Assembly: GCA_008080735.1 (NCBI GenBank)
Contig: SHMW01000090.1
Span: 1-17,500, forward strand
DNA length: 17,500 nt
Source of the DNA: Promethearchaeota archaeon
GTDB taxonomy: Archaea > Asgardarchaeota > Lokiarchaeia > Sigyniarchaeales > SOKP01
Reading direction: 5' to 3'
The first letter of the stretch is position 1. Each line of letters starts with the position of its first letter. This document shows, in pieces, positions 1,980 to 14,514 of this stretch. A model generated the notes under the pieces. The model was not told the DNA's origin and made no database searches. It saw only the letters and a program-made list of their open reading frames with translations. The position numbers and the translations under genes are program-made.

Positions 1980-2633
1980 CTAAGTACTTATCATAACTTT
2001 CTTTTTGATAATTTTGCGTAAGACAACGGAGAGGGTTGATTTTGATTTGCCTAATTCATTTGCTAATTCTTCTAAAGAAATTTTCCTTGGAATATCAAAA
2101 AACCCTTCATCAATCGCTTTTTGTAGGATTTCCAGCTCATCCAAACTTAATCGGTGACCTTCATCCTCTAGATTCACAGAAGTATTTCCAATTTTTAATA
2201 ATTCAAAATCTATGCCCATTTCTTCAAACATTGTAAGCATTTTATCAATTCTTTTACGGGTCGAAATTAAATCCCAATATGCATAACCGTCTTCTATTTT
2301 TACTGGAAAATCCACCAATACCCCACATTTAATAACTCCATAGAGTAAATACGGATCCATTGTTTTTACATTGAATTTAATGCGATTTTCCTCTCTCTCA
2401 ACTAATGAGAATTCCATAACAGAAGGATGGTTTTGGATTTCCTCAATCATTAAATCGATATCGTAATGCATAATTTCTACCACAGCGTTCCCGATTGATT
2501 TTTCCAAATCATAGGGGAGAAAGTATAATATTTCCATTTGAACATCATGGAACTTTTCAAATATATCTGAGATCCAGATTCCTTCCGGAAATTCTACTCT
2601 AATGGTTGCGATTGTCGAATTTTGAGAATCCAT
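1980..2633 (-). CDS. Archaeal transcriptional regulator with C-terminal bacterio-opsin-activator-type HTH (HTH_10)
   Basis: C-terminal LS..E.EILQKAIDEGFFDIPRKISLEELANELGKSKSTLSVVLRK is the typical HTH_10 signature. Start taken as the ATG at 2633; the alternative is GTG at 2657. Confidence 0.85.
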   Translation of the reverse strand: MDSQNSTIATIRVEFPEGIWISDIFEKFHDVQMEILYFLPYDLEKSIGNAVVEIMHYDIDLMIEEIQNHPSVMEFSLVEREENRIKFNVKTMDPYLLYGVIKCGVLVDFPVKIEDGYAYWDLISTRKRIDKMLTMFEEMGIDFELLKIGNTSVNLEDEGHRLSLDELEILQKAIDEGFFDIPRKISLEELANELGKSKSTLSVVLRKIIKKKVMIST

Positions 2634-2719
2634 AGCGACTGATAAAAAAGGGTTCACTTTCTATAGAGATTTTATGTAATTAGCAATAATATTAAATAAT
2701 AAATATACTATTTCTTCTT

Positions 2720-3316
2720 ATGTCTTTGGATAAAAACCTCCTTATAGGAGTTTGTGGAAGCCCCAGAAATCAAGGAACTGAATTTGCTGTCAAATATGCA
2801 CTTGAATATGCGAGAGATAAATTTGGGTTTGAAACCGAATTTTGGACTGTGAGAAAGAAGGAGATCAAGTTTTGTATTCATTGCGATTATTGTATAAGAG
2901 AGAAAAAAGGATGTATCCATAAGGATGATTTACAAGGATTATATCCGATACTCGAACAAGCCAAGTTTTTGTTGTTTGGTACCCCGGTCTTTCAAGGAAA
3001 CTTATCAGCCCAAATTAAGGCAATCATGGACAGGTGCCGAGCTATTGTTGCTAAGAATCCAGAAGTCTTTAAAAATAAGGTAGGGATGGCCCTAGCAGTT
3101 GGAGGGGATAGGAGCGGAGGGCAAGAGATTGCGATGCGAACTATATTAGACTTTTATCAGCAAAATCATATTATTTCTGTTTCTGGCGGTGCGTTTGGTG
3201 CCAATTTAGGAGCAGCATTATGGAGTAACGATAAAGGAAGGGAAGGGGTTGAAAACGACCAAGAGGGGTTGAAGGCAATACGAATGGTAATAAAGCGATT
3301 AGCAGAGTTTCAATAA
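2720..3316 (+). CDS. Iron-sulfur flavoprotein (Isf) / NADPH-dependent FMN reductase-family flavodoxin
   Basis: GSPR flavin loop, compact Cys motif CIHCDYC-x6-C, GTPVFQG, and GGDRSGGQE. Confidence 0.9.
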   Translation: MSLDKNLLIGVCGSPRNQGTEFAVKYALEYARDKFGFETEFWTVRKKEIKFCIHCDYCIREKKGCIHKDDLQGLYPILEQAKFLLFGTPVFQGNLSAQIKAIMDRCRAIVAKNPEVFKNKVGMALAVGGDRSGGQEIAMRTILDFYQQNHIISVSGGAFGANLGAALWSNDKGREGVENDQEGLKAIRMVIKRLAEFQ

Positions 3317-7478: not shown

Positions 7479-7544
7479 TGAACTAATCCAAATTAAAGCT
7501 ATATAACTAGATTTTAAATCTACTACAGGATAGAGTTGATAAAT

Positions 7545-8300
7545 ATGGAAACAGTTCGAATTGATGAGATGACGTGGGTCGATATTAAAGAAAAGATTGA
7601 AAACGGATATAAAACTGTGATTTTTGGGGTAGGTTCCACCGAGCAACATGGCCCGTCTTTACCCGAACAAACTGACGCACGGCAAGCGGATGAATTTGCA
7701 CACATTATCGCATTAGAATTAGGAAATACTCTCCAAGCTCCAACAATTAACGTAGGTTTTTCAAAATATCATATGCATTTTCCCGGCACGATTACACTAC
7801 GAAAGGAGACATTGAGTGCGATTATAGAGGATTATGTCAATAGTCTTGCAAGCCATGGATTTGAAAATATTATTATATTTATATCACACGGAGGTAATGA
7901 AGAGCCTGTAAACGCGGTCCTTCCTCAGCTACGGGAAAAATACCCAGAGAAAAAAATATTTTATTATTATACCCAAGATATACTTCCTGCTATGAGAGAG
8001 ATGGGACAAAAACACGATTTAACATTTGGGGAAATAGGTTCTCATGCGGGGGATATGGAAGCTTCTGTTATGCTCCATTTAGCGCCCGACCTTGTTAGAA
8101 AGGAGCGTCTTGCGAAAGGATATACAAAAATGATAACTCCGAGGGTAAGGAAAAAATATAGAGCAAACGGATTCCAAACGATAACCGAAAACGGAGTAGT
8201 TGGAGATCAAACACGAGCAACAGCAGAAAAGGGAAAGGATTATATGGATCACTTCAAAAAGGTAGTTTTCAACTATATTAGACAAAAATTAGAACAATAA
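7545..8300 (+). CDS. Creatininase / creatinine amidohydrolase family protein
   Basis: GSTEQHGPSLP..TD, H..FPGTITL, SHGGN, HAGDME and NGVVGD...AT.EKG motifs. ATG at 7545; alternative TTG at 7536. Confidence 0.9.
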   Translation: METVRIDEMTWVDIKEKIENGYKTVIFGVGSTEQHGPSLPEQTDARQADEFAHIIALELGNTLQAPTINVGFSKYHMHFPGTITLRKETLSAIIEDYVNSLASHGFENIIIFISHGGNEEPVNAVLPQLREKYPEKKIFYYYTQDILPAMREMGQKHDLTFGEIGSHAGDMEASVMLHLAPDLVRKERLAKGYTKMITPRVRKKYRANGFQTITENGVVGDQTRATAEKGKDYMDHFKKVVFNYIRQKLEQ

Positions 8301-10788: not shown

Positions 10789-11082
10789 TTAGTCTAAAAA
10801 CATCTCTTCTGCTTTATTTTTTCGTAGTCCCGTCTGAGACCAGAGCTCTTTGAAATAATAACTGCCATCCATAATTACAACGGGAGTGTTCACAATGCAT
10901 TCATCAGCATCGCAGAACGTCTGGACGAAGTTTTTATCTTGAAGAAGCTGATTCACAAATTTTTCATCATTTATGTCTTGCTCTATATATTTCACATCAT
11001 TTTCATTAAGCCATTCCTTCAGTTCATGACACCTATGGCAATCTTCCTTTGTAACTATTATTGGGAGCTTCATTTCGGTCAT
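10789..11082 (-). CDS. Glutaredoxin/NrdH-like thioredoxin-fold protein
   Basis: CHRC active site, NTPVV cis-Pro loop followed by DG; SD-like GAGGT about 6 nt upstream on the minus strand. Confidence 0.8.
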   Translation of the reverse strand: MTEMKLPIIVTKEDCHRCHELKEWLNENDVKYIEQDINDEKFVNQLLQDKNFVQTFCDADECIVNTPVVIMDGSYYFKELWSQTGLRKNKAEEMFLD

Positions 11083-12007: not shown

Positions 12008-12469
12008 ATGATAAAATTGAAAAAATCCAACCTAATTAAGCGAGTAAAAACCGCCCAATTCATCGGAAAACAGCTTTCACGATTAAAAGCGGGGCAATCG
12101 TATTACTCCATCGCAGTCTCGACCGTGAGCGCAATCTCGCTCATCTCATTAGCATTTAAGATCACTTTTTGGATGCTTATTATCGCATTTCCGGTGCTTC
12201 TCTTTTTCGCGTACATTATTGGCTATTTTATGGATGTCTACAACATTAATACAATGGATACGCTCAAATCAAACGAGATTGCGCAGAGATTTCTCACTAC
12301 AAGCGATTTAAAAAACCAAGAATTTCAACTTTTACAAACGGAAATCATTCTAAAAGCGATTCAAGCGATTCAAGAGGGGGAAAAATTAGACCCGAACGAA
12401 TTATTGGGGAAATACCAAGATTATTATGCTAAATGGAAATATCCCGACCCAATGGCAGAAAAAAGATGA
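12008..12469 (+). CDS. Hypothetical protein with two central TM helices
   Basis: 153-aa ORF with an SD-like AAGGTGA 4 nt upstream of the ATG, a basic N-terminus, a hydrophobic hairpin and a helical C-terminus. Confidence 0.72.
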   Translation: MIKLKKSNLIKRVKTAQFIGKQLSRLKAGQSYYSIAVSTVSAISLISLAFKITFWMLIIAFPVLLFFAYIIGYFMDVYNINTMDTLKSNEIAQRFLTTSDLKNQEFQLLQTEIILKAIQAIQEGEKLDPNELLGKYQDYYAKWKYPDPMAEKR

Positions 12470-12496: not shown

Positions 12497-13564
12497 TTAT
12501 ATGATATTTCTAATGAACCATCGGAGTGCTTCCAGAGTTTTTTTATCATTATTTAATAAATTTACAGGAAAATATTCGATTTTCACGTCGCACTCGTTTA
12601 TTTGATCAATTTGAAAAGTATCGTTTACTATCTCTTCGGAAACTTCTTCATGGTAGGTAAATTTATTACCGATGATGAGTATGGGGATGGTATCCTCAAG
12701 CTCATGATTACATATTTTTTTCACAATAATTTTAAAGCGTTCCTTTGCATCAATAATAGATTGTTTATCGGACACATTGAATATAAGTATAAATCCTTGC
12801 GCCTTATTGATACATCTATTACTTCTTCCACATTGTTCACATTTAAATTGGTTATCAATACACTCTTCCATCAAAATTTCCATATTGTCAATTACCACTT
12901 CTAAGATTTGGGTGCCTAATCCGCTGTCATCTTGACTATGGAATTGCAGTGCTTCGATATTTTTGAGGAATGTTGTCTTTCCCGCATGATCTGCCCCAAA
13001 GATAAAAACTTTTTTAAGTTCATCCTTTGATTTCTGGAGGAAAGGGCCCTCCTTCATGCATAAGGTCTTAAAATAGGATTTGAATAGATTTATAAACTTT
13101 TTTTGGAAAGATTTGTTGCCTAATGAAATTAAATCTTGCTGATTTTCAATATCCTTATTTTGGTTCAGTATTCGCGAGAAATCTTCTAATTGTTGTAATT
13201 CAGAGGCAAATTCTTCTAAAATTGGGGTTTTCGATTCCAAATAGCGATAAATATCAGAAATTTCGGATTTAAAATATGCGGCTCGAATCATGTAAGAAAT
13301 CATCAGCAAGTCTTTCCCTCCCCTCGCATATTCACTTTCCAGATAGAAAATATGGTTAACCGTTTGGTATTTTCGAAAGGCAAATATAAATGTTCCTTCT
13401 TCATTATTAAAATCAAGAATTCTACCTAAATCAGGAAATTCCTCACGATCCGATAATTCTGCATTGCAATGAAAGGTGTTAGGGCCGATAATTCTGTCAA
13501 AATAACTTATGCAGAGAATTTCTGTGAGCGGCATATCTAAGGATAAATAATCCTTTTGAGGCAA
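12497..13564 (-). CDS. uDENN/longin-like domain fused to a degenerate Ras-superfamily small GTPase domain (eukaryotic signature-type protein)
   Basis: N-terminal SYFDRIIGP and HIFYLESEYARG motifs. C-terminal KVFIFGADHAGKTT P-loop, AQGFILIFNVSDKQS, and IPILIIGNK (G4 lacking Asp). No DxxG G3 motif. Start is TTG 13564 or ATG 13534. Confidence 0.8.
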   Translation of the reverse strand: MPQKDYLSLDMPLTEILCISYFDRIIGPNTFHCNAELSDREEFPDLGRILDFNNEEGTFIFAFRKYQTVNHIFYLESEYARGGKDLLMISYMIRAAYFKSEISDIYRYLESKTPILEEFASELQQLEDFSRILNQNKDIENQQDLISLGNKSFQKKFINLFKSYFKTLCMKEGPFLQKSKDELKKVFIFGADHAGKTTFLKNIEALQFHSQDDSGLGTQILEVVIDNMEILMEECIDNQFKCEQCGRSNRCINKAQGFILIFNVSDKQSIIDAKERFKIIVKKICNHELEDTIPILIIGNKFTYHEEVSEEIVNDTFQIDQINECDVKIEYFPVNLLNNDKKTLEALRWFIRNII

Positions 13565-13700
13565 ATAATTTATATTTTATATTTTAAAAGATCAAGATGA
13601 GTTCTTGATTCAATTGGAAAAAAACTCATTAGCTCTATGCATATTTTATAAAGACTATCTTTAATAAAATTAGGTAATTTTGTTCTTTTAAAGAAGTCTA

Positions 13701-13780: not shown

Positions 13781-14122
13781 ATGATTCAACCTGGTGAGAA
13801 TGGAATGGAAAAAATGGAATTTCCGGAATATATAGAAGAATTAGCAACTAAAGTGGAAGGAAAGAACGACAAACGAGATATGATAGCTTTTACGCTTTCT
13901 ACATGTCAATGGTGTAAGAAATTCAAACGTTATATGGAAGAGCATGATGTTGCGTTCAGATATGTTGATGTTGACCAAATAGACCCCAACGATAAAGCAC
14001 AAATTCTAAATTTTTTGCGCAATAGTTTTAGCAACAGAATATCTTATCCATTTTTGATATGTGAAGGAGAAGCTGTCGTAGGATACAATCCTAATAAATA
14101 TGAGGAATTATTAGAAGGATAG
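13781..14122 (+). CDS. Glutaredoxin, methanoredoxin-like
   Basis: LSTCQWCKK active site, ISYP cis-Pro loop and AVVGY. Resembles Methanosarcina methanoredoxin (LSTCVWCKK, recalled). An alternative start at ATG 13805 is preceded by GGTGAG. Confidence 0.88.
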   Translation: MIQPGENGMEKMEFPEYIEELATKVEGKNDKRDMIAFTLSTCQWCKKFKRYMEEHDVAFRYVDVDQIDPNDKAQILNFLRNSFSNRISYPFLICEGEAVVGYNPNKYEELLEG

Positions 14123-14133
14123 GGTGTGTAAAT

Positions 14134-14514
14134 GTGAGTTTTAATTTAGAAAGTAAGGAAGGAATGAAAGAATATTGCGATGTCATATGCGAAAGAAATG
14201 GCTGGATTCTTCAAAAAGATACTGAAACCCTGAATGATTTACTCGAAGGTTTAGTTGAGAATAAAAAAAATTACGGATATCAGTCATGTCCTTGCCGGTT
14301 CGCATGTGGAAAGAGAGATTTGGACAGAGATCTTATATGTCCTTGTGAATATGCGCCTCTTGATATCGAGGAATATGGAACTTGCTATTGCAACTTATTT
14401 TTAAGCCCCGATTATTACGAGAGATATGACAGAAAATTCGTGCAGATACCAGAACGACGTCCTGTAGAAAAGGAGAATGCCGTTTTAGAGTATATGAATG
14501 AAAAAGTTGATTAA
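14134..14514 (+). CDS. Ferredoxin:thioredoxin reductase catalytic-subunit family (ferredoxin:disulfide/glutaredoxin reductase)
   Basis: YGYQSCPCR, DLICPC, GTCYCNLF (CPC/CPC/CxC) and IPERRP motifs; 11 nt downstream of the glutaredoxin, with a GGGTG SD-like site. Confidence 0.92.
   Translation: MSFNLESKEGMKEYCDVICERNGWILQKDTETLNDLLEGLVENKKNYGYQSCPCRFACGKRDLDRDLICPCEYAPLDIEEYGTCYCNLFLSPDYYERYDRKFVQIPERRPVEKENAVLEYMNEKVD

Follow-up and report, generated by a model that had tools for sequence, protein, structure and literature searches.

A Lokiarchaeal protein combining a longin domain of the folliculin/NPRL2/SMCR8 class with a degenerate Arf-derived G domain

Within the analyzed window (the whole stretch of DNA, 17,500 nucleotides in length), the gene located at positions 12497-13534 encodes a two-domain Lokiarchaeal protein, in which a longin domain (residues 1-160) precedes an Arf-derived P-loop domain (residues 171-345). 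The mechanically defined open reading frame spans positions 12497..13564 of the minus strand and gives a protein of 355 aa when counted from the TTG codon at 13564. Translation probably starts at the ATG at 13534 (Met11 in the TTG-based numbering), as the orthologues are 345 aa long and begin there, and as an AT-rich, TATA-like stretch, which may act as a promoter judging from its sequence, lies over the TTG. Most of the best 120 database homologues are approximately 345 aa long, with the alignment starting at Met11, and those carrying names are proteins of Lokiarchaeota/Promethearchaeota and of allied Asgard MAGs. Residues are numbered here from the ATG at 13534, hence residue n of the preliminary description of this DNA corresponds to n-10 in this work (e.g., Arg81 to Arg71). 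The genome contains only one orthologue of this protein, besides two paralogues that have the GP and ARG motifs and no P-loop; a third longin match is weaker. The features of the locus were collected in Table 1.

Table 1. Features of the longin–Arf gene and its upstream region (residues counted from the ATG at 13534).
Feature	Residues	Position	Strand	Basis
AT-rich, TATA-like stretch upstream of the ATG, adjoining/overlying the TTG; putative promoter		13568..13589	(-)	sequence read
Whole gene, 345 aa + stop	1-345	12497..13534	(-)	ATG at 13534
N-terminal longin domain, β-β-α-β-β-β-α-α with extra helices	1-160	13055..13534	(-)	AlphaFold2, Foldseek, VIA
GP motif YFDRIIGP, β1-β2 hairpin	11-18	13481..13504	(-)	invariance, FLCN alignment
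Arg-finger loop SEYARGG, β4-β5 hairpin	67-73	13316..13336	(-)	invariance, FLCN alignment
Low-confidence linker between longin and G domain	~161-170	13025..13054	(-)	pLDDT <50 at 166-169
Arf-family-derived G domain	171-345	12500..13024	(-)	PF00025, PDB profile search, Foldseek
P-loop GADHAGKTT	180-188	12971..12997	(-)	conservation
Replaced switch II (EECIDNQFKCEQCGRSNRC)	223-241	12812..12868	(-)	alignments
G4 remnant GNKF, without the NKxD aspartate	289-292	12659..12670	(-)	alignments

The Foldseek search with the full-length model was dominated by GTPases, and therefore the longin was modelled separately; moreover, the pTM of the whole-protein model was only 0.52. The AlphaFold2 model of residues 1-170 (built on a 45-sequence alignment) reached a pLDDT of 82.7 and a pTM of 0.82, and its secondary structure follows the longin order β-β-α-β-β-β-α-α. 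DSSP applied to the AlphaFold2 models placed strands at residues 5-13, 17-23, 47-53, 56-66, and 74-84 and a helix at residues 36-42, with further helices following the last strand. Residues 1-160 possess the five-stranded antiparallel sheet of the Roadblock/LC7-longin superfamily, and, judging by the model, the longin fold of this domain is certain.

The use of Foldseek against PDB, with the longin alone as the query, indicated as the top matches FLCN (8dhb_J at 7.8e-5, and 6ulg_L), the GATOR1 longin chains 9v0j_A, 9o5d_D, and 7t3a_B, the Lokiarchaeal longin 8yqg, and Lst4. In the VIA search, which is independent of Foldseek, the best match was the Lokiarchaeal longin (8yqg_B, Z 12.4), followed by FLCN (6nzd_H, Z 11.1, with 138 residues aligned and 18% identity), GATOR1 (8fw5_C, Z 10.7), and Lst4 (4zy8_C, Z 10.2), while generic longins (TRAPP, Sec22, and VAMP7) scored Z 8-9.7, with TRAPP and Sec22 at Z 9.7. 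For the predicted structure, these results are consistent with a preference for GAP-type longins in both searches, with a modest margin over the generic ones. The preliminary description had proposed a uDENN/longin domain; the longin part of this label agrees with the model and with the structure matches, among the best of which are the FLCN and GATOR1 longins, whereas the uDENN part fits only loosely, as no DENN module follows the longin.

Among the VIA matches there were also the SRX structures 1nrj_A (Z 7.0) and 5ck3_A (Z 6.6). In the eukaryotic SRP receptor, the longin-like SRX domain binds the Arf-like SRβ, and the protein could in principle be a single-chain analogue of this pair, serving in membrane targeting or as a receptor and not as a GAP. 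The name “signal recognition particle receptor subunit beta”, given to several orthologues by JGI, and the match of Pfam SRPRB to 13/71 distant relatives speak for such a possibility. Nevertheless, we find it highly improbable, since a Z of 7.0 (compared with 10.7-11.1 for GATOR1 and FLCN) falls within a range flagged as possibly reflecting only a common arrangement, the ORF has no FtsY/SRα NG domain, neither the model nor the translation shows a transmembrane segment, and Arf outscores the other Pfam families listed for this protein.

The longin carries two short motifs, whose strings were already given in the preliminary description (FDRIIGP at 22-28 and HIFYLESEYARG at 71-82 in the TTG-based numbering) and are exact in the sequence; the latter occupies residues 61-72 when counted from the ATG, and the codon of Arg71 (positions 13324-13322) was read directly as AGG. 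In the AlphaFold2 model, the GP opens strand 2 and SEYARGG forms the loop of the β4-β5 hairpin. The usual strand order of longins is 2-1-5-4-3, and because of this topology the GP and Arg hairpins would be adjacent, at the same edge of the sheet. All 75 orthologues share Y11, F12, D13, G17, P18, R71, and G72, while A70 and G73 are conserved in at least 90% of them, and the same conservation was found in a second alignment, comprising 45 N-terminal domains from genome loci.

Arg164 of human FLCN is catalytic. The FLCN segment 154-175 was read in the PDB chain 6ulg_L, where the arginine in question is indeed R164 and the string given earlier turned out to be correct, and the N-terminus of FLCN (...ALCHFCELHGP...) contains the F-x4-GP opening that had been ascribed to it. 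When the FLCN longin region was left uncut, the one top-scoring local alignment of hhalign paired N60-K127 with FLCN 153-234 and placed R71 on R164 (P 0.0037, probability 9%). With FLCN 1-28 only, residues 3-29 were aligned without gaps and G17-P18 fell on G15-P16 (P 7.8e-5). When the b2-b3 insert of FLCN was removed, the alignment covered 148 columns with both motifs in register (E 2.4e-5, probability 75%); it should be stressed that this insert-free template was our own edit, which raised the probability from 9% to 75%, and that the FLCN profile is vertebrate-only, composed of near-identical sequences and shallow (Neff about 1.2-1.6). In these alignments, YFDRIIGP is matched by the FLCN stretch H9-F-C-E-L-H-G15-P16, and the Arg loop by DSLAR164G, by which the register of the gapless 12-residue match noticed previously was reproduced.

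The Pfam models Folliculin (PF11704) and NPR2 (PF06218) gave no match to the 12497-13534 protein at E<=10, and one orthologue reached a sub-threshold 0.14 against them. Over the same region, Folliculin also matched, below the threshold, the relative P0172 (0.0056, 17 bits) and a paralogue from the same genome (3.9e-4, 21.5 bits compared with a cut-off of 23.3). No significant family was assigned to the longin by Pfam or NCBIfam, whether the entire protein or the 45 N-terminal domains were scanned, and PDB HMM-versus-sequence searches with the orthologue and superfamily profiles returned only noise, FLCN not being found.

It might be argued from this weak sequence signal, i.e., from the lack of a Pfam match and the hhalign probability of only 9% with the uncut region, together with the Z of 8-9.7 reached by generic longins, that the likeness to the FLCN finger arose by convergence or by chance on a generic longin serving, as most longins do, as a GEF platform or adaptor. 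We regard such an origin as improbable, because the two separate motifs are collinear and gapless (with the P values and joined E value given above), the sub-threshold Folliculin matches recur in relatives over the same region, and GAP-type longins came first in both structure searches. The invariance in the 75 orthologues, the retention of Arg and GP throughout the superfamily (see below), and the gapless hhalign register likewise indicate that the motif match to FLCN is more than chance. Residues 1-160 form a longin of the FLCN/NPRL2/SMCR8 class, in which Arg71 aligns with FLCN Arg164. In the ESM Atlas, where the neighbours score only 0.83-0.84, one neighbour cluster has NPR2 in 19% of its members; being a lead only, it points away from a generic longin.

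The second domain was previously described as a P-loop domain of a GTPase fold lying downstream in the same ORF, and both GADHAGKT and the PF00025 match are in frame. The Arf family (PF00025) matched residues 181-353 (TTG-based numbering) with 38 bits (cut-off 22.3) and an E-value of 1.5e-9, scoring above every other Pfam family listed for this protein. The PDB profile search of the G domain indicated Arl8 (7e-10) as well as Arl5, Sar1, and Asgard ArfR structures, while its Foldseek matches were Arl6, Arl13B, Sar1, Arl8, and Asgard ArfR structures. Thus, the GTPase fold to which the longin is fused belongs to the Arf family by three approaches, with the reservation that the N-terminal amphipathic helix of Arf proteins is missing, as the N-terminus is a 160-residue longin.

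In the G domain, G180 is present in 75/75 orthologues, G185 and K186 in 73/75, and a strict GxxxxGK[ST] motif in 113/131 full-length family members, so the P-loop appears to be under selection in this family. The switch II glycine of DxxG is absent in all 131 members (131/131) and no catalytic Gln is aligned; a [YE][DE]C... sequence is found instead. The copy from the window (EECIDNQFKCEQCGRSNRC) has four Cys residues, which occur together in only 51/131 members, the last Cys being present in 126/131. The G4 element reads NKFT, with an invariant N290, and an Asp at its fourth position was observed in only 4/131 members. Judging from these alignments, the attached G domain can hardly be an ordinary switch.

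The longin-domain profile was then compared with 1.84 billion representative proteins, which yielded 203 relatives at E<=0.001, and all relatives carrying names are of Asgard origin (Lokiarchaeota, Helarchaeota, and Promethearchaeota). Among the best 150 of the 203 relatives, those 50%-identity representatives that cover the respective columns have the Arg in 127/132 cases and the GP in 133/136. Consequently, the conservation of the arginine in Asgard homologues, proposed earlier as a check, holds both in the orthologues and in this wider set. The 71 distant representatives include 22 with Arf domains (best E 9e-48), 11 with PAS, and 5 with HATPase_c domains, and PF04670 was matched by only some of the distant cousins. 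GP/Arg longins are thus a large Asgard superfamily, whose members are found as stand-alone proteins, as fusions with PAS/histidine-kinase modules, or as fusions with fully canonical Arf-type domains. Fusions of the last kind, approximately 320-330 aa long or longer, number 15 among the representatives listed, and these 15 have GLDxAGKT-type P-loops, DxxGQ (mostly DVGGQ) and [NH]KxD, and keep the GP and RG of the longin. Canonical cousins, such as those of the P0223/P0392 cluster and NHI93433.1 (a Lokiarchaeota “GTP-binding protein”), share with the 12497-13534 protein the same N-terminal GP/RG longin and a homologous G domain; they keep GLDxAGKT, DVGGQ, and NKxD, of which the family of the 12497-13534 protein has lost the last two, and, judging from these motifs, they can be true switches.

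As such canonical longin-Arf cousins exist, and the G domain of the 12497-13534 protein is detectably similar to theirs (up to 43.6 bits), the family appears to be a derived branch of the longin-Arf architecture. At E<=1e-20 it was found in 56/68 genomes of one GTDB family and in none of the 29 other sampled families of the phylum. The preliminary description viewed the protein as a possible single-chain forerunner of eukaryotic modules. This part of it was not supported: with a G domain devoid of the DxxGQ glycine and Gln and almost never having the NKxD Asp, the family is not a plausible forerunner and looks like a derived offshoot; also, the orthologue group is confined to one GTDB family. 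The canonical longin-Arf cousins fit this role better.

The longin GAPs folliculin, GATOR1, and C9orf72-SMCR8 are linked to disease and control mTORC1 and lysosomal traffic, and the origin of longin GAPs and the basis of their chemistry are only partly understood. Like FLCN (Lst7), NPRL2 (GATOR1/SEACIT), and SMCR8 (C9orf72-SMCR8-WDR41), the 12497-13534 protein combines a longin fold with a GP at b1-b2 and an ARG loop at b4-b5. Unlike these three proteins, it has no DENN or NPRL2 C-terminal module, and, unlike FLCN, its longin has no b2-b3 insert of ~100 residues. The clients of the eukaryotic GAP-type longins are Rag or Arf GTPases, and the 12497-13534 protein carries an Arf-like domain; it differs from the eukaryotic proteins in having the partner GTPase fold within the same chain and a longin lying below the Pfam thresholds.

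With slightly better than even confidence, we propose that the longin is the working unit of the protein. It would associate with another longin, probably forming a homodimer, and contact an Arf-type G domain at its nucleotide pocket, inserting Arg71, while the adjacent GP loop would shape this pocket. The pairing is expected from the precedents of FLCN-FNIP2, NPRL2-NPRL3, and SMCR8-C9orf72, as well as of the Lokiarchaeal longin 8yqg, which is a dimer, and the repeated fusion of GP/Arg longins to Arf-type domains leads us to infer that the latter are the natural clients of the former. In this lineage, the tethered Arf-type domain, the putative client, has lost its own switch II, which allows for two variants of the mechanism, considered by us about equally likely. 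Arg71 may complete the crippled P-loop site of its own protein, in cis or across the dimer; or else it may act on a separate ArfR/Rag-like GTPase, the tethered domain being then a nucleotide-bound regulatory or scaffolding pseudo-GTPase. In either case, a GAP activity of this longin, in cis or in trans, is predicted from sequence, and it has to be weighed against the fact that the G domain is devoid of the residues normally working together with a GAP finger.

Relatives that stand alone, are fused to PAS/histidine-kinase modules, or have no P-loop retain the Arg, which is equally conserved where a G domain is missing, as do family members with a destroyed P-loop (e.g., P0132 and P0138). Its role would therefore need no attached G domain, and a role strictly tied to the G domain of the same protein is argued against. 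The two Arg-less members of the family have imperfect P-loops, as do 16 Arg-keeping ones, and these sequences are not independent.

The conservation of Arg irrespective of the fusion partner would also be expected under the main rival explanation, according to which the longin is a dimerisation platform only, comparable with the C-terminal roadblock of Rag/Gtr proteins, and its GP and ARGG loops are structural, i.e., involved in hairpin stability or in the dimer interface, with no GAP activity. The VIA matches to the roadblock-type domains of Lokiarchaeal Rag-like proteins (9m28, Z 8.0, and 8yl2, Z 6.3), and an attached G domain that is no ordinary switch, are consistent with it as well. However, the domain order is opposite to that of Rag, the 12497-13534 protein has no Pfam match to Gtr1_RagA, the best family of its G domain being Arf, and the near-universal presence of an Arg-Gly in a solvent loop across such divergence would be unusual for a purely structural residue. 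Furthermore, according to passages of PMC12290439, the Arg is found in eukaryotes only in the catalytic partners, and the GP is absent from non-GAP longins. Taken together, a purely structural role of the loops seems to us rather unlikely, and the insertion of Arg71 into an Arf-type pocket is preferred.

A more far-reaching scenario is possible, albeit doubtful: longin plus Arf domain might be an ancestral, self-contained GAP-GTPase unit, in which the tethered longin of the canonical cousins would supply the finger to its own Arf domain, in cis or across a homodimer, and of which the family of the 12497-13534 protein would be a derived form, with the finger as the sole catalytic residue left to a P-loop domain devoid of switch II. 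If this were true, the fusions would constitute a prokaryotic “Rosetta stone”, indicating Arf-family GTPases as the original clients of longin GAPs, which later became SMCR8-C9orf72 (acting on Arf) as well as FLCN-FNIP and GATOR1 (acting on Rag).

Several components of this picture have been described before. Passages of Liu et al. 2021 (10.1101/2020.10.19.343400) report abundant NPRL2-like longins, two-component fusions, and longin-GTPase fusions in Asgards, those of Tran et al. 2024 (PMC10933270) catalogue the longin-GTPase architectures of MK-D1, and those of Zhu et al. 2025 (PMC11914678) mention longin N-termini on Asgard Arfs. Like the fusions described in these passages, the 12497-13534 protein begins with a longin, continues with an Arf/Rag-like G domain, and comes from the same phylum, and the GP/Arg superfamily is also fused to two-component modules, as the published Asgard longins are. 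Unlike the published longin-GTPase fusions, as presented in these passages, the family of the 12497-13534 protein has a degenerate G domain, retaining the P-loop only; the same passages do not mention that the longins of the fusions carry a GP motif or an Arg finger.

The passages of a further paper (PMC12290439, Traffic 2025) describe the GP and the Arg finger as neighbours within the catalytic pocket of FLCN, NPRL2, and SMCR8, state that Asgard longins share both, propose a GAP function for these Asgard “FLCN/SMCR8-type” longins, and ask whether their partner is ArfR or Rag. The longin analyzed in this work has the GP and the Arg in the same structural arrangement as the ones presented there. 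In those passages the GTPase partner of the longin proteins is in question, whereas the 12497-13534 protein and its canonical cousins have an Arf-type domain covalently joined to the longin; some of the 15 proteins of that work may themselves be fusions. In the searchable literature, we found no paper showing that the fused Asgard longins are those of the finger-bearing type. Hence, NPRL2/FLCN-like longins, longin-GTPase fusions, and the GP and Arg motifs of Asgards were known already, and what the present analysis adds is their link, i.e., the connection of GAP-type longins with Arf-type G domains through gene fusion. With regard to the ArfR-or-Rag question, as it is put in the passages of PMC12290439, the recurrent fusion offers a gene-fusion answer open to direct testing.

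The fusions are small (about 320-345 aa), consist of a single chain, and look soluble, and are thereby suited to biochemical and structural work, for which the canonical cousins are more informative targets than the 12497-13534 protein, a degenerate variant. Conserved neighbours hinting at a partner GTPase were looked for at 80 loci, and the recurrent ones are not GTPases; they comprise thiol-redox genes, a small uncharacterised ORF, and the genes for an HTH regulator and an FMN reductase, and recur at only approximately 30 of the 80 loci.

Analysis of the replaced switch II of the G domain in the 131 full-length members of the family revealed three main cysteine patterns, i.e., CCCC (51 members), -C-C (43 members), and C--C (28 members). 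The last cysteine is near-universal (126 of 131) and is the only one so conserved. The four-cysteine cluster is not family-wide, and as CCCC occurs in only 51 members, a putative metal site would be restricted to a subgroup.

The comparison of 80 orthologue loci showed that a neighbourhood resembling that of the window is kept in about 30 of them. On the divergent, upstream side of the orthologue, a glutaredoxin-like gene and a gene for the catalytic subunit of ferredoxin-thioredoxin reductase (PF02943) are localized, while the downstream side carries a small ORF (17 of the 80 loci; no Pfam match), a second glutaredoxin, an FMN reductase, and an HTH_10 regulator, the last two being about 10 kb distant in the window. 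This neighbourhood could reflect lineage synteny or, alternatively, a redox link to the cysteine-bearing G domain.

Features identified within the window
Feature	Position	Strand	Remarks
Replaced switch II	12812-12868	-	
Conserved neighbourhood gene	13781-14514	+	
Conserved neighbourhood gene	12008-12469	+	
Conserved neighbourhood gene	10789-11082	-	
Conserved neighbourhood gene	2720-3316	+	
Conserved neighbourhood gene	1980-2657	-	
Fuz_longin_1 ORF, 369 aa	16053-17162	-	Pfam 1.5e-7, 32 bits vs cut-off 26.1
TPP-enzyme C-terminal domain protein, 396 aa	9497-10687	+	located upstream
Creatininase-family protein	7536-8300	+	located upstream

The ORF matching Fuz_longin_1 (the first longin of FUZ, MON1, and HPS1) is a second longin protein in the window. 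It is localized 2.5 kb from the gene of the GP/Arg longin, on the same strand, and was found again close to the orthologue in 8 of the 80 loci.

Among the solved Lokiarchaeal structures there are a Roadblock-Longin protein (PDB 8yqg) and the Rag-like GTPases 'LokiRagM' (monomeric; 9m28) and 'LokiRagO' (tetrameric; 8yl2), and a search of the accessible literature library for the publications behind these three entries found none. The nearest solved fold to the longin domain of the analyzed protein is 8yqg (Z 12.4).

In the orthologue locus L031 (5001-5510), an in-frame stop was observed within the region of the N-terminal domain; the gene may be a pseudogene, or the stop may come from an error in sequencing or from an offset of the match. 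The orthologue of L030 lies on contig DATKTW010000151.1, which belongs to a MAG named 'Candidatus Nanopelagicaceae bacterium'; the contig is probably mis-binned, since the gene neighbours of the orthologue agree with Lokiarchaeal synteny.
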